Shown here: positions 36,362 through 42,133 of the stretch, one piece after another
How positions within the stretch are numbered: the stretch's first letter is position 1
How the letters are laid out: each line of letters starts with the position of its first letter
Assembly: GCA_965250105.1 (NCBI GenBank)
Contig: OZ252290.1
Location: forward strand, 3,449,308-3,513,307
Origin: Tepidamorphaceae bacterium
GTDB lineage: Bacteria; Pseudomonadota; Alphaproteobacteria; Rhizobiales; Tepidamorphaceae
DNA: 64,000 bases
Reading direction: 5' to 3'
Made by a program: the position numbers and the translations under genes
Notes under the pieces: model-generated
Told to the model about the DNA's origin: nothing
The model's database searches: none
Seen by the model: the letters and a program-made list of their open reading frames with translations, nothing else

Positions 36362-38140
36362 ATGGCGACCGAACCGAGGCCCTTTCTGGACGTCGCGACG
36401 TCCGTCACCGGCAAGACATGGGTCGACGCCCTGTCGGCGCCCGAGCGCGCCCAGGCCGAAGCACTGGTGCAGCGGACCGGCCTGCCGGACACGCTGGCGC
36501 GGGTTCTGATCGCGCGCGGTGTCGCGCCCGAGGCGGCCGAGGCCTATCTCGACCCGAAACTCAAGACATTGATGCCGGATCCGCTCGTCCTCGCCGACAT
36601 GGACAAGGCGGCCGAGCGGTTGATCCAGGCGGTCGATGCTGGCGAGGCCATCGTCATCTTCGGCGATTACGATGTCGACGGCGCCACATCCTCGGCGCTT
36701 CTGTGGCGGTTTTTGAAGGCGCTTGGGGTGACCGCCGAGATCCGTATTCCCGACCGGCTGCTCGACGGCTATGGGCCGAACGACGCGGCCATCGAGGAGA
36801 TCGCGGCGCGCGGCGGGCAGCTTCTGGTGACCGTCGATTGCGGCACCACCTCCTTCTCGGCGCTCGACCGCGCCCGCGTGCTGGGGCTCGATACGATCGT
36901 CCTCGACCACCATCAGGCTGAGACGGCGTTGCCCGAGGCCGTGGCGCTGGTCAATCCCAACCGGCAGGACGACCTGTCCGATCTCGGCCATCTCGCCGCC
37001 GTGGGCATCGTTTTCATGGTGCTGGTCGAGATGTCACGGCGGCTGAGGGCGCGTGGGCAGGCCGATCTGCCGGATCTGATGGGCCTTCTGGATCTCGTCG
37101 CGCTCGGCACGGTGGCCGATGTGGCGCGCCTGCGCGGCCTCAACCGCGCTTTCGTGCGCCAGGGGCTCCGATTGTTGCAGGCGCCGGACAAGTCCGGCCT
37201 CAATGCGCTGATGCGGGTCGCGCGCGTGCAGGGGCCGGTCACCGCCTATCATCTCGGCTTTCTGCTCGGCCCGCGCATCAATGCCGGCGGGCGCATCGGT
37301 GATGCGAGCCTCGGCGCGCGCCTATTGACGCTCGACGATCCGGTCGAGGCCGAAGCTATCGCCCAGCGGCTCGACGAGCTGAACAGCGAGCGCCAGGCGC
37401 TCGAAGCGGGTTTGCTGGAGGATGCGGTGGCGCAGGTCGAGGCGCGCGGCCTGTCCGATCAGCCCGTCATCGTCGTATCCGGCGCGGCCGACTGGCATCC
37501 GGGGCTTCTCGGCCTCGTCGCCGCGCGCCTGAAGGAACGCTACAACCGGCCGGCGGTCGCGATCGGCTTCGATGGAGCGCGGGGGACTGGATCAGCGCGC
37601 TCGATCTCGGGCGTTGACCTTGGCGCCGCGGTGCGGGCGCTTGTCCGCGATAGTGTTCTGGTCAAAGGCGGTGGCCATGCCATGGCGGCTGGGCTGACGG
37701 TCATGGAGGCCGAACTGCCACGTCTCAAGGCGGGCTTGGCAGCGCATCTCGCCGAGGATGTGTCCGACGCGGTGGCCCGGTCGTCGACCAGGGTCGACGG
37801 CGCGCTGACGGCGGCGGGCGCGACGCGCGATCTCTGTGATCTCCTCGACCGCGCCGGCCCGTATGGCGCCGGCAATCCCGAACCCGTCTTCGCCTTTCCC
37901 GCCCATCGGCTGTCGGCCTCCCCGGTCAAGGGCGGGCATATTCGCCTGCGCCTGCGGGCCGGCGATGGCGCGTCGGTCTCCGGCATCGCCTTTCGCGCCG
38001 AACAGACCGCTTTGGGCGATGCCTTGCTTGCGGGGCGAGACCGTCCGGTCCATCTTCTTGGCGTTTTGCGCCGCGATCGGTATGGCGGGCGCGACGATGT
38101 CGTCGTCACCGTCCGCGACGCGGCGTTTCCGACGGCCTGA
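36362..38140 (+). CDS. recJ: Single-stranded-DNA-specific exonuclease RecJ
   Basis: DHH motifs IVIFGDYDVDGATS, VTVDCG and VLDHH are present, with a DHHA1 region GGGHAMAAGL. Confidence 0.9.
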   Translation: MATEPRPFLDVATSVTGKTWVDALSAPERAQAEALVQRTGLPDTLARVLIARGVAPEAAEAYLDPKLKTLMPDPLVLADMDKAAERLIQAVDAGEAIVIFGDYDVDGATSSALLWRFLKALGVTAEIRIPDRLLDGYGPNDAAIEEIAARGGQLLVTVDCGTTSFSALDRARVLGLDTIVLDHHQAETALPEAVALVNPNRQDDLSDLGHLAAVGIVFMVLVEMSRRLRARGQADLPDLMGLLDLVALGTVADVARLRGLNRAFVRQGLRLLQAPDKSGLNALMRVARVQGPVTAYHLGFLLGPRINAGGRIGDASLGARLLTLDDPVEAEAIAQRLDELNSERQALEAGLLEDAVAQVEARGLSDQPVIVVSGAADWHPGLLGLVAARLKERYNRPAVAIGFDGARGTGSARSISGVDLGAAVRALVRDSVLVKGGGHAMAAGLTVMEAELPRLKAGLAAHLAEDVSDAVARSSTRVDGALTAAGATRDLCDLLDRAGPYGAGNPEPVFAFPAHRLSASPVKGGHIRLRLRAGDGASVSGIAFRAEQTALGDALLAGRDRPVHLLGVLRRDRYGGRDDVVVTVRDAAFPTA

Positions 38141-38162: not shown

Positions 38163-38846
38163 ATGGACGACAGCTTGGATGACGGGATCAGCGGCCTCGT
38201 CACCGCCCGCCGCGACGCGGCTGGACCGGAAACACAGGTCGGCGATGCCGGCGATCGGCGCGAGCCGGACCATTACCACTGTCTCGATGCGGTGCGCTCG
38301 ACCGCCTTCGAGATGTTCGCGCGCGGGGTGCGCGACCGGCGGTCGGCATGCCACACGGTGACCCTCGGGACGATCGCCGCCGATGGCGCGCCATCCGTGC
38401 GCGTCGTGGTGCTGCGCGGCTTCGACGCGGAAGCGCGCAGCCTGCGCTTTCACACCGACATCCGCTCGCGCAAGATCTACGAAATCGCCGCCAATCCGGT
38501 GATCGCCGTTCACGCCTATGACCCGGTCGCGAAGATCCAGATCCGGCTCACCGGTCGCGCCCAGGTGCATGTCGATGACGCGGTTCAGGCGAGCGCCTGG
38601 CAGGCGACGCGGTCCTTCAGCCGCGCCTGCTACCGGACCGAGCCGTCGCCGGGTGCCGAGATCCCGGACGGCGGGGCCTTCGCCATGCCCGGGGCCGATG
38701 ATCCCGATGCCGGGCTCGAGCATTTCCGCGCCGTCGTCATGCGTTTCGATCGGCTCGAATGGCTCTATCTCGCCGCTGGCGGTCATCGGCGGGCATTGTT
38801 TCTGTGGTCGGACGAGAGCGAGGACGTGGCCTGGCTGGTGCCTTAG
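38163..38846 (+). CDS. Pyridoxamine 5'-phosphate oxidase (PNPOx-like, FMN-binding split-barrel) family protein
   Basis: The split-barrel pattern is TLGTIAADGAPSVRVVVLRGFDAEARSLRFHTDIRSRKIYEI. The in-frame ATG is at 38163. Confidence 0.65.
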   Translation: MDDSLDDGISGLVTARRDAAGPETQVGDAGDRREPDHYHCLDAVRSTAFEMFARGVRDRRSACHTVTLGTIAADGAPSVRVVVLRGFDAEARSLRFHTDIRSRKIYEIAANPVIAVHAYDPVAKIQIRLTGRAQVHVDDAVQASAWQATRSFSRACYRTEPSPGAEIPDGGAFAMPGADDPDAGLEHFRAVVMRFDRLEWLYLAAGGHRRALFLWSDESEDVAWLVP

Positions 38847-39333
38847 GGGCATGCGCGCTGGAACGGCACAGACAAGCAGATAAGATGTCGTGGACGCCCC
38901 GATACCCCGGGGGCGAACCCTTGCGTCCTGGACAAGGGGGCGGAGAAGTTGCCCTGTTTTGCGGCTCGTGCATCCGAGCACAGTCGTTATCAAGGCCGCC
39001 TGCTCCTCGGGGCCCAACCTCCAAGACGCTCGACAAGAACGCTTCCGGCCCGGCTTCGCGCAAGGGATGGCACCCCGGTGTAGACAGGGCCGATACCTCG
39101 CCACAAAGCGCGGGAACTGAACGCGCGACGCGTGGGCCTTGCGTAGACATGCGAGAGAACGGCAGGCGCGCGAATAATGCAACTATTAAGTGCATTTGCC
39201 GTCTAAGGAGGCTGAAGCGTCGATTCTCGCGGCGCCCGACTTATCCTTAAGGAGCATATGGTTCCCCCTATTGCCCTCAGCGTTTTACACGTTAACCTAG
39301 AATCACAGCAACCAGGCCGGCTGGGCGATTGTG

Positions 39334-40179
39334 ATGCTACGGGAGATCTTCGGTCGCAATCTGAGGCGTTTGTGCGAAGCGCGGGGGTCGATCGCATCCG
39401 TATGCCGAGAGACGGGTATCAACCGTCAGCAGTTCAACAAATACCTCAACGGCTCGTCCCTCCCCGATCAAAACAACCAGGATCGGATCGCGCGCTATTT
39501 CGGCGTCAAGCCAGCCGATTTGTTTCGCGACGAGGTGGTCGACTCGGAGGGGATTTCGCTAACGGTTGAGCGGTCCGAACTATCCGCGAGGCTATCAAGG
39601 ATCGCCGAGGCCGAACGACCGTCCGCTCTCGAATGCGGCCGGTATTTCGTGACGTTCGGCGAGCCCACCGACCCGAACATGATCGTCCGGGCCATCATGA
39701 TCGTGTGGCATGAGGGGCGCTCGACGGTCTTTCGCCGGCTCACCGGCTTTGCGGAGCCGCGCGGCAGCTGGTGGGCGGATTATGGCGGTGATCACACCGG
39801 CGTCGTGATGGACCGCAGACAGCATCTTCATTTCGTCGGGCTCAATCAGGTCGGCAATCAAGAGCCGACGCTGATTACGGTCGCATGGACGACCAGCGAG
39901 CGGCCGCTCCTGGTTGGACACGCCGCTGTCCTTGGGACGGCGCCGGTGATTTGCCCCGTTGTGATTTCGAAGGTGTCGGAACGGTTGTCCCTGAGAAGGG
40001 CCCTGGCCAGCGCTCGCGCCTATTCGGTCGATGATCCGGCGATAGAAGCAGCCGTCGTCGATGCCCTTGCCGATCGCGGTGCTCAATTGGCTCGGATGCT
40101 ACAACCGCTGGATCTGTCCGTATCGCCGCTCAATCAAGGTCGCCAGACCGCCAGGCCGGAACGCCTCAACGGTCATTGA
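39334..40179 (+). CDS. XRE-family HTH transcriptional regulator with an uncharacterised C-terminal domain of about 210 aa
   Basis: The N-terminus LREIFGRNLRRLCEARGSIASVCRETGINRQQFNKYLNGSSLPDQNNQDRIARYFGVKPADLF is a canonical Cro/C1 HTH. I recognise nothing in the C-terminal part. Confidence 0.75.
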   Translation: MLREIFGRNLRRLCEARGSIASVCRETGINRQQFNKYLNGSSLPDQNNQDRIARYFGVKPADLFRDEVVDSEGISLTVERSELSARLSRIAEAERPSALECGRYFVTFGEPTDPNMIVRAIMIVWHEGRSTVFRRLTGFAEPRGSWWADYGGDHTGVVMDRRQHLHFVGLNQVGNQEPTLITVAWTTSERPLLVGHAAVLGTAPVICPVVISKVSERLSLRRALASARAYSVDDPAIEAAVVDALADRGAQLARMLQPLDLSVSPLNQGRQTARPERLNGH

Positions 40180-40305
40180 GCGCGAGCTTCGCTAAAGGCG
40201 CGAAGGTCGCGAGCCCCCTTCGCATTTCGCGAGAATTTCCAATCTCCCAATACTCCGGTCGAATGTATGCGTCCTTTTCGTGGGGCGCAAACAAAGGAGA
40301 TAGAC

Positions 40306-40395
40306 ATGAAGACCGGTGTTCTCAACATCAACGTGAAGCCCATTTCCAGCGCGTCGAGCCTGAATACAAAGGCCATGTGCTACAACAAGCAATAA
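40306..40395 (+). CDS. 29-aa small ORF (candidate precursor or leader peptide) MKTGVLNINVKPISSASSLNTKAMCYNKQ, not in the supplied ORF track
   Basis: AAAGGAGA ends 5 nt before the ATG at 40306, and the TAA is at 40393-40395. The stop lies 54 nt upstream of the SagB-like gene on the same strand and is followed by a terminator-like hairpin. The codon usage is A/T-ending (AAT, ACA, ATT, GGT, GTT, CAA). Confidence 0.55.
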   Translation: MKTGVLNINVKPISSASSLNTKAMCYNKQ

Positions 40396-40402
40396 CCAGC
40401 GA

Positions 40403-40437
40403 GCCCTGCCGCCGACAATGGCGGCAGGGCTTTTCTT
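40403..40437 (+). terminator. Intrinsic-terminator-like hairpin between the small ORF and the SagB-like gene
   Basis: GCCCTGCCGCC-GACAAT-GGCGGCAGGGC forms an 11-bp perfect stem, followed by TTTTCTTT. Confidence 0.75.
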
Positions 40438-40449
40438 TGGGAGATCGCA

Positions 40450-41583
40450 ATGCGTATTCGGGCGGCACGCACCCTCGTGTTCTTGCGTGAGAACGGCCAG
40501 TTGCTTGGTTTCAACTATCTGAGCAAGAAGTCCTTCGCTTGCTCGCAGGACCTGCTGGCCTTCCTGCCGATGGTCGATGAATGGACCGAGGTCGCGGACA
40601 TCTGCGCGAAACTCGGGGCGCAGGAACGCGTGTTTGACGCGCAGGTTGAGGCCTTGATCGACGTTTCGGCGATCGTTGCCGAGGGAAGCCTTGTCGCTCA
40701 TGACGAAGCGCGCTTCGTCGCGGACTGGAATTGGGGCCTTCCCGCAGCGCTTTTCCATCAGTCGGTCCGTGATCGGCCATGCATGACGGTCGAAGAAGGT
40801 GAAGCTGTTCAGCGTGAGCGGCTCGTATCCGGGCAACCGGCACCGGCGCTCTTCTCGCGAATGCTGCCTCCCGCCGAGCAAATCATGTTGCCAAGAGCGC
40901 CATCGCCTGTCCTTGAGGTCATGGCACAGCGGCGCACGATACGGTCAGCGTCGGCTCCGACGGTGGCCCTAGAGGATGTCGCGGACTGCCTGTTCGCCGG
41001 GCTTGGCATCGTCGGTCACACCCGTAACGGTGTCGGCGTCTCGCTACCGCTGTCGATGACGCCGTCGGGCGGCGCGCGGAACCCTTATGAGGCGTTCGTG
41101 TGCGCGCGGCGCGTGGATGGGCTCGCGGCTGGCGTCTACCACTATTCGGCTGTTGATCACGCTCTTGAGCCGATCGACGGGGCCGACCTGCCGCTCCTGT
41201 CCGAGCTGATTGGCGGTCAGGAGTGGGCCGATGACATGCCGGTCATGATCATTCTGGTCGCCTATTTCGACCGATCCGCCTGGAAGTATCACGACGCGAA
41301 CGCCTACAGGGTTGTTCTGATCGAGGCGGGGCACATCGGCCAGAACATCATGCTTGCGGCGACGGAACGCGGACTGTCAGCCTGTCCGTCGGCGGCGCTC
41401 GATCACTCAAAAATCTCAGACCTGTTGGGGCTCGACGGTTTGATGCACGGAGCCCCGATATACGCACTGACGGTGGCGCATCCTGGTCATGCGGAAGCGA
41501 TGATTCCGGTGGCCGCACCATCGGACCGAACACAAAGGGGCATCGCAGATGCGAGCACTGAAGGTCTTGAAATCAGAGCATAG
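40450..41583 (+). CDS. SagB/ThcOx-family FMN-dependent dehydrogenase (nitroreductase superfamily) with a PqqD/RRE-like N-terminal domain
   Basis: GGGAGA ends 5 nt before the ATG. Nitroreductase motifs are AQRRTIRSAS, PSGGARNPYEAFV, YHYSAVDHALEPI and YRVVLIEAGHIGQNIMLAATERGLSACPSAALD. The N-terminus LVFLRENGQLLGFNYLSKKSFACSQDLLAFLPMVDEWTEVADICAKLG follows the PqqD pattern. Confidence 0.85.
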   Translation: MRIRAARTLVFLRENGQLLGFNYLSKKSFACSQDLLAFLPMVDEWTEVADICAKLGAQERVFDAQVEALIDVSAIVAEGSLVAHDEARFVADWNWGLPAALFHQSVRDRPCMTVEEGEAVQRERLVSGQPAPALFSRMLPPAEQIMLPRAPSPVLEVMAQRRTIRSASAPTVALEDVADCLFAGLGIVGHTRNGVGVSLPLSMTPSGGARNPYEAFVCARRVDGLAAGVYHYSAVDHALEPIDGADLPLLSELIGGQEWADDMPVMIILVAYFDRSAWKYHDANAYRVVLIEAGHIGQNIMLAATERGLSACPSAALDHSKISDLLGLDGLMHGAPIYALTVAHPGHAEAMIPVAAPSDRTQRGIADASTEGLEIRA

Positions 41584-41701
41584 CAACATCGAGCCCATGC
41601 TCGCGATGCTGCGCTATATCAGAGAGGACTTCGTCGGTCGCGACGAGTTTATCGTCTACCTGCTCGACATGGTCATTTACGAGCTGTGTCAGCAGCGCTA
41701 G
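41549..41701 (+). pseudogene. 50-codon ORF resembling the N-terminal third of a hemerythrin-like (HHE) domain protein, possibly a truncated remnant
   Basis: MRALKVLKSEHSNIEPMLAMLRYIREDFVGRDEFIVYLLDMVIYELCQQR* shows the L-x-x-EH-x-x-I-x-x-L-x-x-L opening typical of hemerythrin-like proteins, but it stops before any downstream His/Glu motif. AAGGGG lies 8 nt upstream. The ORF overlaps the SagB-like stop by 35 nt. Confidence 0.25.
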
Positions 41702-41861
41702 CCATCTCGTGTTGCAATCGGGCAAGGACGGCGGCCGACTTGGCGGTCTCGATGAGGTGAGCCAGCCTCAAGAGATCCGCGTCTCTTGCGACGGCCGAAA
41801 GCGTCCCCAATTCGCGGACAATACCGTCAAGATCGTCTTCGTCACTCATGGCCAGCCCCAC
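41673..41861 (-). CDS. Hypothetical 62-aa acidic protein
   Basis: The ORF has a GTG start (an internal ATG gives MSDEDDLDG...). I recognise no family and the SD is weak. Confidence 0.2.
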   Translation of the reverse strand: MGLAMSDEDDLDGIVRELGTLSAVARDADLLRLAHLIETAKSAAVLARLQHEMASAADTARK

Positions 41862-41996
41862 AGCCCCAACGCTCGGACCGCAAGTCTATACTATCAGACT
41901 GTGTCGGGAGTGCGTTGAGGGTGCTCACGGATCAATGGTGCGCTCTCTTGCGCCATGGATCCCGGGAAAGGTGCGATGAGCAGCGGAAAAACCGCA

Positions 41997-42051
41997 ATAA
42001 AATCAACGAATCAAAAATGTTGGATAAGAGCTATCGATCTGTTGATTTTAT
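41997..42051. repeat. AT-rich inverted repeat abutting the 3' end of tRNA-Glu (possible tRNA terminator or old att remnant)
   Basis: ATAAAATCAAC (41997-42007) is matched by GTTGATTTTAT (42041-42051). On the minus strand it is followed by TGCGGTTTTT. Confidence 0.5.
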
Positions 42052-42057
42052 TGTATC

Positions 42058-42133
42058 TGGCACGCCCTACGGGACTCGAACCCGTGTTTCCGCCGTGAAA
42101 GGGCGGCGTCCTAGACCGCTAGACGAAGGGCGC
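42058..42133 (-). tRNA. tRNA-Glu (anticodon UUC)
   Basis: The reverse complement GCGCCCTTCGTCTAGCGGTCTAGGACGCCGCCCTTTCACGGCGGAAACACGGGTTCGAGTCCCGTAGGGCGTGCCA folds as a cloverleaf. The anticodon arm is CCGCC-CTTTCAC-GGCGG. Confidence 0.9.

Follow-up and report, generated by a model that had tools for sequence, protein, structure and literature searches.

A 64,000-nucleotide stretch of the genome of a Tepidamorphaceae bacterium (contig OZ252290.1, positions 3,449,308 to 3,513,307; hereafter the window) contains a 29-codon open reading frame (ORF) upstream of a gene for a 377-residue SagB/ThcOx-type flavin mononucleotide (FMN) dehydrogenase, and we think it probable that the short ORF encodes the precursor of a small, horizontally mobile peptide-modification module resembling those that make RiPPs (peptides made on the ribosome and modified after translation). 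Such a RiPP-like arrangement had been proposed from the letters of the window (the original prediction), and it is borne out in substance by the conservation of the ORF, the selection acting on it, an RRE-like (RiPP-recognition-element-like) domain predicted in the enzyme, and a hairpin between the two genes in 75 of 81 loci. These alphaproteobacterial loci comprise the window and 80 (43–56% identity in the dehydrogenase) of the 134 stretches in a set of species-representative genomes that encode a relative of the dehydrogenase; the sampled carriers include Mesorhizobium, Nitratireductor, Rhizobium mongolense, Jiella, Shinella, Phyllobacterium, Hoeflea and many metagenome-assembled genomes (MAGs) of the Hyphomicrobiales.

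The peptide gene, the stem-loop and the dehydrogenase

The peptide gene runs from an ATG at 40306 to a TAA stop at 40393–40395 (window coordinates; features are on the forward strand unless stated) and encodes MKTGVLNINVKPISSASSLNTKAMCYNKQ in 29 codons. It is preceded by a Shine-Dalgarno sequence, AAAGGAGA (40293–40300), with a 5-nt spacer to the start codon, as the original prediction had read it; the other elements of that description, namely a second Shine-Dalgarno sequence, GGGAGA, a 54-nt gap and a 377-codon ORF, are likewise all present in the sequence. The short ORF had been taken to be unlisted, and this does not hold for the public gene calls on the same sequence, which include the 29-aa gene. 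Homologues in Mesorhizobium and Rhizobium are deposited as ‘hypothetical protein’, and searches with nine family peptides match no family in Pfam or NCBIfam.

A homologue of the peptide ORF precedes the dehydrogenase gene in every one of the 81 loci, giving 64 distinct sequences, so that the conserved short upstream ORF expected at homologous dehydrogenase loci is indeed found. The ORFs are 25–42 codons long and end 10–137 nt upstream of the enzyme gene, with a Shine-Dalgarno-like core of at least 4 nt before the chosen start in nearly all loci scored. The exception in spacing is an Inquilinaceae locus (L006), where some 300 nt separate the peptide ORF from the enzyme gene; the intervening sequence (within L006 4600–5000) holds what seems to be left of a duplication, a partial and degenerate repeat of the peptide, HLVKPVGRRGPTHVSAVLP.

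The 64 peptides form a single family that can be aligned end to end, and the shared motif persists in spite of the divergence of the accompanying enzymes (43–59% identity). Family members begin with a basic or polar segment, continue with a motif like [KP]xNL[ST]V[KV]P and a variable linker of few residues, and close with a C-terminal block, F-[VF]-x-[PQ]-[GA]-M-x-[YF]-[NDTR]-[KR]-x, which is better conserved than the leader-like motif. In the window peptide the leader-type motif is LNINVKP (residues 6–12; 40321–40341), and the C-terminal block, SLNTKAMCYNKQ (40360–40392), aligns to the family F-V-x-P-[GA]-M-x-[YF]-[ND]-K-x. Near-invariant positions are an aromatic residue four from the C-terminus (Tyr or Phe; three peptides have Leu) and, two and three residues ahead of it, the [GA]-M. 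The original prediction placed weight on an adjacent Cys–Tyr pair and anticipated a conserved xCYxxx core, and here the alignment speaks against it. The position of Cys25 in the window peptide is occupied by His in all Mesorhizobium peptides (for example the Cys-free MAKKVNTAPKLTIAAGTQTVFFSQGMHYNKR) and elsewhere by Met, Phe, Ala, Asn, Tyr, Trp, Gln, Leu, Pro, Ser, Glu or Ile; a Cys directly before the aromatic residue is found in the window peptide and about ten others, and the core contains no invariant Cys, Ser or Thr column across the 64 peptides.

The peptide sequence is under purifying selection, as had been anticipated. Among 32 distinct Mesorhizobium coding sequences the ratio of nonsynonymous to synonymous polymorphism (pN/pS) is 0.21, and the segment GMHYNKR is unchanged, while several other codons, Gly25 and His27 among them, vary synonymously. 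A hidden Markov model (HMM) built from the 63 distinct peptides of other genomes, leaving out the window peptide, and searched against all 1,485 six-frame segments of the window has the window peptide as its sole significant match (E = 5.4e-5; the next best is 1.2). Because of the homologue upstream of the enzyme gene in all 81 loci, the low pN/pS and the unique leave-one-out match, we consider on sequence grounds that the 29-codon ORF is a real and conserved gene.

Between the peptide and enzyme genes is a G+C-rich hairpin with the form of an intrinsic terminator. Its stem (40401–40432) has 14 pairs, 10 of them G–C, closed by a 4-nt loop and followed by TTTTCTTT, the whole element spanning 40401–40438 and beginning 5 nt past the peptide stop codon. 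The original prediction was right about the presence of this hairpin; in its description as 11 bp long and starting 7 nt past the stop, no more than the G+C-rich core was counted. The window hairpin folds with a z-score of −4.3 to −4.4 relative to shuffled sequences, none of 200 shuffles folds as well, and it is intact in both the minimum free energy (MFE) and centroid folds, neither of which predicts a competing pairing of its 5’ arm. A generic terminator scan finds no enrichment in the region (4 found, 3.8 expected), and the argument for the hairpin therefore rests on the fold z-scores and on conservation across loci. In this respect the 60 nt following the peptide stop fold with z < −2 in 75 of the 81 loci, forming stems that are mostly 12–17 bp long and begin at a median of 9 nt past the stop; their sequences differ, and the hairpin is thus conserved in structure and not in sequence. 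The T-run is variable, with at least four T residues in the next 10 nt in 20 loci (about one quarter), the window among them, and an Rfam search of 39800–42300 matches a tRNA only and no leader family. A precursor gene followed by a stem-loop and then the enzyme gene is an order typical of RiPP operons. The stem may end transcription or may stabilise the precursor mRNA, and either is compatible with the data.

The dehydrogenase gene (40450–41583) starts 54 nt after the peptide stop, with its Shine-Dalgarno sequence GGGAGA (40439–40444) located 5 nt before the ATG at 40450. Its assignment to the SagB/ThcOx family of FMN oxidoreductases is upheld by matches to PF00881 (E = 4.7e-20) and to the SagB domain TIGR03605 (101.9 bits against a cut-off of 78.4). 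The best-scoring curated whole-protein family is TIGR04511 (SagB_rel_DH_2, ‘putative peptide maturation dehydrogenase’), which is itself uncharacterised; residues 58–335 match model positions 70–360 of 380 (E = 8e-48), and since the score of 163.4 bits is under the 240-bit cut-off the protein appears from these scores to be a relative, and not a member, of TIGR04511.

An AlphaFold2 (AF2) model of the whole dehydrogenase, built with 71 family sequences, has a mean confidence score (pLDDT) of 87.9. Foldseek searches with this model give BmdC, ThcOx and McbC as the best matches (E = 1e-16 to 1e-10), followed by generic nitroreductases and cyclodipeptide oxidases, the latter including 9exv and 8uc3 (E about 1e-6 to 1e-7, against 1e-16 for the azoline oxidases). 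The nitroreductase-fold FMN domain occupies residues 159–342 (40924–41475) and contains the invariant W278-K279-Y280 (41281–41289), which aligns with the WKY of ThcOx; the WKY, RRRT.R and PSGGARNP columns are invariant in the 71 family members. In McbC the corresponding Lys201–Tyr202 is a catalytic pair that abstracts a C-alpha proton before hydride transfer to FMN (PMC6395948).

The N-terminal domain (residues 1–80; 40450–40689) is by its predicted fold an RRE-like, putatively leader-docking winged-helix domain. Modelled alone it has a pLDDT of 93.1 and a beta-beta-beta-alpha-alpha-alpha topology, and RREs make up nearly all of its Foldseek neighbours: TbiB1, TigE, a lasso B1 protein, LynD, PbtF, ThcOx, McbB, MccB, BmdC, TruD, MadB and PqqD, with TM-scores of 0.55–0.78 and E-values of 5e-3 to 0.5, the argument residing in the composition of this list and in the TM-scores, since modest single E-values are to be expected for a domain of 81 residues. 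Sequence searches of the same domain against Pfam and the PDB sequences give nothing useful, and the RRE is seen by structure comparison only. In characterised systems RRE domains hand the substrate to the fused catalytic domain (PMC6395948). Since the FMN-site motifs and the Lys–Tyr pair are invariant, sequence and model together suggest that the family keeps an active dehydrogenase with a peptide-docking domain.

Regulator, small helical protein and genomic setting

Upstream of the peptide gene is a gene for a helix-turn-helix (HTH) protein of the XRE/Cro-C1 type, 281 aa long by the public gene call (39334–40179; the mechanically defined ORF starts at GTG 39331). Residues 7–66 match PF13443 and PF13560, and the C-terminal domain of about 190 aa has no sequence match in Pfam or the PDB, all PDB matches being through the HTH. 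An XRE-type homologue of about 250–290 aa is encoded directly upstream on the same strand in 78 of the 81 loci, and distant homologues of the regulator (25–30% identity) do not adjoin SagB genes; the protein is presumed to be a dedicated regulator of the cassette. The region immediately following its gene (40180–40245) contains four TTCGC/GCGAA pentamers in both orientations (GCTTCGC, GCGCGAAGG, CCCTTCGC and TTTCGCGAG). Four or more copies of the pentamer are found in only 68 of the 63,934 sliding 66-nt segments of the window (0.1%), and GCGAA-containing hexamers are enriched 3.5–5.5-fold within 200 nt upstream of the peptide start in 48 non-redundant loci, with related repeats visible at the same place in L002, L008, L010, L023, L033 and L077. 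We regard this cluster as a candidate operator of the XRE protein.

A second, small XRE-family HTH protein (about 120–150 aa, with the motif TFQQ[IV]QKYE) is encoded within 1–2 kb of the cassette in 13 loci outside Mesorhizobium (L001 2922–3338, L003 5825–6469, L004 3068–3496, L033 6101–6508, L048 6148–6504 and eight more). Its position and orientation vary, and the window does not encode one.

Inspection of the spacers between the regulator and peptide genes first revealed a further component, a small protein of two helices whose core is Y[IV]xxM..L..LA..[FM]LxYLLxMAxxEA. An iterated HMM search of the loci finds it at significant scores in 54 of the 81, and a second iteration adds no members; six of these proteins were searched against Pfam and match no family. 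It is found in two positions, either divergently transcribed between the regulator and peptide genes or overlapping or directly following the dehydrogenase gene, with examples at L002 4417–4638 (reverse strand), L033 4333–4581 (reverse strand) and L036 6121–6369 (forward strand). The window has a 50-aa ORF at 41549–41701, called as a gene in public annotations, that overlaps the 3’ end of the dehydrogenase gene by 35 nt and is placed like the copies in Mesorhizobium, Jiella and Nitratireductor. It ranks 58th among 7,717 segments (E = 0.28), just under the confirmed members, and its DEFIVYLLDMVIYEL aligns to the YLLxMA motif, and it is probably a divergent member of the two-helix family. The small helical protein may be a partner of the enzyme, an immunity factor or a partner of the regulator.

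The cassette is thus less bare than was originally thought. The original prediction regarded it as minimal and its dehydrogenase as an orphan, and this does not stand, the XRE regulator being co-conserved and the small helical protein usually so. Nothing else recurs: when all ORFs within 5 kb of the cassette are clustered across the 81 loci, the only ones that recur outside Mesorhizobium synteny, antisense shadow ORFs aside, are those for the dehydrogenase and the XRE protein, and there is no recurrent gene apart from those for the XRE protein, the peptide, the dehydrogenase and the small helical protein. Flanking genes differ between loci outside Mesorhizobium. The original prediction also saw the islet as lacking genes for YcaO, E1-like proteins, proteases and exporters, and three 20-kb contexts annotated with Pfam (this genome, a Tepidamorphaceae MAG and Jiella) agree, none containing YcaO (PF02624), ThiF/E1-like, protease or exporter genes beside it. 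A PADLOC search gives no match to the dehydrogenase or the peptide, and a marginal match of the HTH domain to RmrA (E = 0.014).

The stretch containing the cassette (39000–42133) has a G+C content of 0.55–0.64, compared with 0.67–0.71 in its flanks, and ends at a tRNA-Glu(ttc) gene on the reverse strand (42058–42133; Rfam tRNA match); it looks like an acquired islet. The Jiella copy (L088) is located amid relaxase, resolvase, ArdC, OLD-nuclease and TacA genes. Because of the low-G+C islet beside a tRNA-Glu gene and the mobile-gene context in Jiella, the gene content suggests that the module provides an accessory and horizontally mobile function. The strong conservation of the peptide core suggests a conserved target rather than an antibiotic engaged in an arms race, and the mobile contexts weigh against this.

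Two neighbouring genes call for brief comment. A gene for a 227-aa FMN-binding protein resembling pyridoxamine phosphate oxidase (PNPOx-like; Pyridox_oxase_2) lies between recJ and the regulator gene (38163–38846), and is probably unrelated to the cassette because it is not conserved beside it elsewhere. The recJ gene is a single 592-aa ORF in the window (36362–38140) and two genes (418 aa, DHH; 152 aa, RecJ_OB) in the public European Nucleotide Archive (ENA) contig of the same sequence (L086 5912–7691), the split probably reflecting a frameshift in that record or a difference in its assembly.

A proposed mechanism and its alternatives

We infer that the dehydrogenase modifies the peptide, and we suggest the following scheme. 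The XRE-type regulator would bind the TTCGC repeats and control a promoter ahead of the peptide gene. The peptide mRNA would mostly end at, or be stabilised by, the hairpin beyond the stop codon, and read-through would yield a smaller amount of dehydrogenase mRNA, such that precursor exceeds enzyme. The N-terminal RRE-like domain would dock the leader, consisting of the basic N-terminus and the xNL[ST]VKP strand, and this docking would bring the C-terminal core, [GA]-M-x-[YF]-[ND]-K-x, into the FMN site within the homodimeric domain of nitroreductase fold. There Lys279–Tyr280 would abstract a C-alpha proton, with hydride passing to FMN. Removal of the leader and export, if any, would be left to housekeeping functions.

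As to the chemistry, direct C-alpha/C-beta dehydrogenation within the core is put forward because of the Lys–Tyr mechanism and by analogy with the nitroreductase-fold cyclodipeptide oxidases, and we offer it as our favoured but speculative proposal; the best candidate for the site, the near-invariant aromatic residue, is a guess from the same analogy. Formation of an azole was considered and rejected since the Cys is not conserved, and canonical azoline-to-azole oxidation is judged unlikely because conserved Cys, Ser and Thr are missing from the core and the 5-kb surroundings hold no recurrent gene beyond the module.

Several observations weigh against this interpretation or parts of it. The proposed site of chemistry is weakened by the high variability of the residue preceding the aromatic position and by the three peptides that have Leu at that position itself. 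The window peptide is divergent, with SLNTKAM where the family has xFVTPGM. Most loci lack a clear U-tract after the stem, so that the terminator role is uncertain there, and the E-values of the 81-aa N-domain in structure searches are individually weak. The lack of a protease, exporter or immunity gene is unusual for a secreted RiPP, and partner enzymes encoded elsewhere in the genome are compatible with the data, the search having covered the 5-kb and 20-kb contexts.

The alternative that survives best, which we nonetheless think unlikely, is that the peptide stays unmodified and works as a small protein by binding either the RRE-like domain or the regulator, acting as an inhibitor or activator of the enzyme, as an anti-repressor, or as part of a toxin–antitoxin-like or defence system. 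The co-conservation of the peptide with the XRE regulator and the small helical protein would fit such a role, as would the mobile and islet contexts and the missing protease and exporter, and a strongly conserved core is what a protein–protein interface might show. Neither the dehydrogenase nor the peptide has a PADLOC match, however; RRE domains in characterised systems deliver substrates to the fused catalytic domain, and the invariance of the catalytic and FMN-binding residues indicates that an active enzyme is kept beside the peptide.

Another explanation is that the short ORF is a translated attenuator leader, in which the position of the ribosome sets the terminator, the peptide is functionless and the dehydrogenase has some other substrate. 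This reading is among the refutations that the original prediction itself had named, and we judge it very unlikely. The strong hairpin begins 5–9 nt past the stop, within reach of a terminating ribosome, and is conserved in 75 of the 81 loci; in the window it bears a U-tract, and the C-terminal conservation could mirror a ribosome-arrest motif. However, the RRE-like domain ties the enzyme to a peptide substrate, which speaks against a mere leader, and the peptide is conserved over its full length, including the N-terminal strand-like motif, and not just near the stop; on these two points a pure attenuator leader was rejected. Moreover, the MFE and centroid folds show no competing antiterminator pairing, the U-tract is missing after the stem in most loci, and the ORF has no run of regulatory codons and no Rfam leader family.

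Finally, a split pathway for a thiazole/oxazole-modified microcin (TOMM), with a distant YcaO making an azoline from Cys25 for the dehydrogenase to oxidise, is highly improbable, for while the SagB-type domain is bona fide and has the Lys–Tyr pair, the closest solved structures (BmdC, ThcOx and McbC) are azoline oxidases, and the window peptide and about ten others have a Cys just before the aromatic residue, that Cys is variable across the family with no invariant Cys, Ser or Thr in the core, the 5-kb surroundings of the 81 loci show no recurrent gene outside the module and the three 20-kb contexts no YcaO, and a module so mobile (an islet beside a tRNA gene here, the Jiella context elsewhere) would not reliably meet a partner encoded in trans.

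Returning to the peptide-modification module, we consider it an attractive possibility, which we hold at slightly below even confidence, that it defines a new class of RiPPs whose single modifying enzyme, a SagB-type flavoenzyme with a fused RRE, acts without a cyclodehydratase and installs a modification not seen before on a 25–40-aa precursor with a [GA]-M-x-[YF]-[ND]-K core, within a mobile, self-regulated four-gene module that is widespread in the Hyphomicrobiales, including the legume symbiont Mesorhizobium. If this is so, the modification could be an alpha,beta-dehydro-aromatic residue or a flavin-dependent cross-link, for example, and the product might serve as a competition factor or an intracellular signal. 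A large conserved family that pairs a SagB-type dehydrogenase with a heterocycle-free peptide and no cyclodehydratase points to undescribed flavoenzyme chemistry, in a compact system made up of one enzyme, its 29-aa peptide and, it may be, a partner of 50 aa. The carriers include the agriculturally important Mesorhizobium and other Hyphomicrobiales, and a role in rhizosphere competition, as with trifolitoxin, or in signalling would be of ecological interest. There is also an annotation gap, with the peptides recorded as ‘hypothetical protein’ or missing altogether and the enzyme named as though it were part of an azole pathway.

Relationship to known systems

Neither literature searches nor curated protein-family libraries yielded a description of this peptide–dehydrogenase family. 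The locus has the general attributes of a RiPP cassette, in that a co-conserved short precursor gene lies beside the enzyme gene and the enzyme has an RRE-type domain by predicted fold. SagB-type dehydrogenases are azoline oxidases, and SagB, McbC and ThcOx, together with the nonribosomal peptide synthetase (NRPS) oxidase BmdC, share with the window enzyme the SagB-type nitroreductase-fold FMN domain and provide its best structural matches. The Lys–Tyr motif is aligned with that of ThcOx, and, like ThcOx, the window enzyme has an RRE fused to the oxidase, at its N-terminus and in one copy, ThcOx having two; ThcOx is the equivalent of McbC with fused RREs (PMC6395948). TOMM pathways combine such a dehydrogenase with a YcaO cyclodehydratase, with or without an E1-like partner, and a cyclisable core, whereas the loci described here have the SagB-type dehydrogenase with its Lys–Tyr pair, no YcaO or E1-like partner in the cluster (5 kb at 81 loci; three 20-kb contexts) and no conserved Cys, Ser or Thr in the core.

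Two other groups share single features with the module. The cyclodipeptide oxidases (AlbA/AlbB) are nitroreductase-fold flavoenzymes that dehydrogenate Phe, Tyr or Leu side chains of peptidic substrates at C-alpha/C-beta. They depend on a small partner protein, encoded by a gene that overlaps the enzyme gene at its 3’ end. They resemble the window dehydrogenase in fold, as structural matches much weaker than the azoline oxidases, and differ in that their substrates are diketopiperazines and not ribosomal peptides and that they have no RRE. The PqqA/PqqD and MftA/MftB systems are similar in their precursor, which is very short, keeps an invariant aromatic residue close to its C-terminal end and has a core of high conservation, in RRE-mediated recognition (PqqD is among the matches to the N-domain) and in having no dedicated exporter. 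Their enzymes are radical S-adenosylmethionine (SAM) enzymes, however, and their role is in core metabolism, in contrast to the patchy and mobile module described here; a phenol-based redox product is unlikely in the present case because the aromatic position tolerates Phe and Leu.

The original prediction had cited trifolitoxin as a precedent for dehydrogenases acting on a short Cys-containing peptide with no cyclodehydratase, and this precedent fails, the trifolitoxin cluster encoding a YcaO-like protein, TfxE, together with the TfxB/TfxC pair (preprint 10.64898/2025.12.02.691738). The wider class of tiarins to which it leads is nevertheless informative. Tiarins are defined by the TfxB and TfxC pair and a conserved core Gln, with the YcaO being accessory, and TfxB and TfxC are RRE-bearing FMN dehydrogenases that are the proposed makers of a non-azole chromophore (preprint 10.64898/2025.12.02.691738). 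Like the module described here, they have a short precursor with a strong Shine-Dalgarno sequence directly upstream of RRE-bearing FMN dehydrogenases, Rhizobiales among their hosts, and a proposed non-azole chemistry. They differ in having the TfxB and TfxC pair where the present loci have a single dehydrogenase, a distinction made by gene content and not by comparison with the TfxB and TfxC sequences, and in their conserved core Gln, no conserved Gln column being present in the alignment of 64 peptides. No second nitroreductase-family cluster occurs among the neighbours of the loci, the three Pfam-annotated contexts contain no aminoacyl-tRNA synthetase (aaRS), GNAT or MATE genes nearby, and a tblastn search with a TfxA sequence against plasmids gives no match. 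The closest relatives of the module are thus the azoline oxidases in mechanism and the tiarins in logic.

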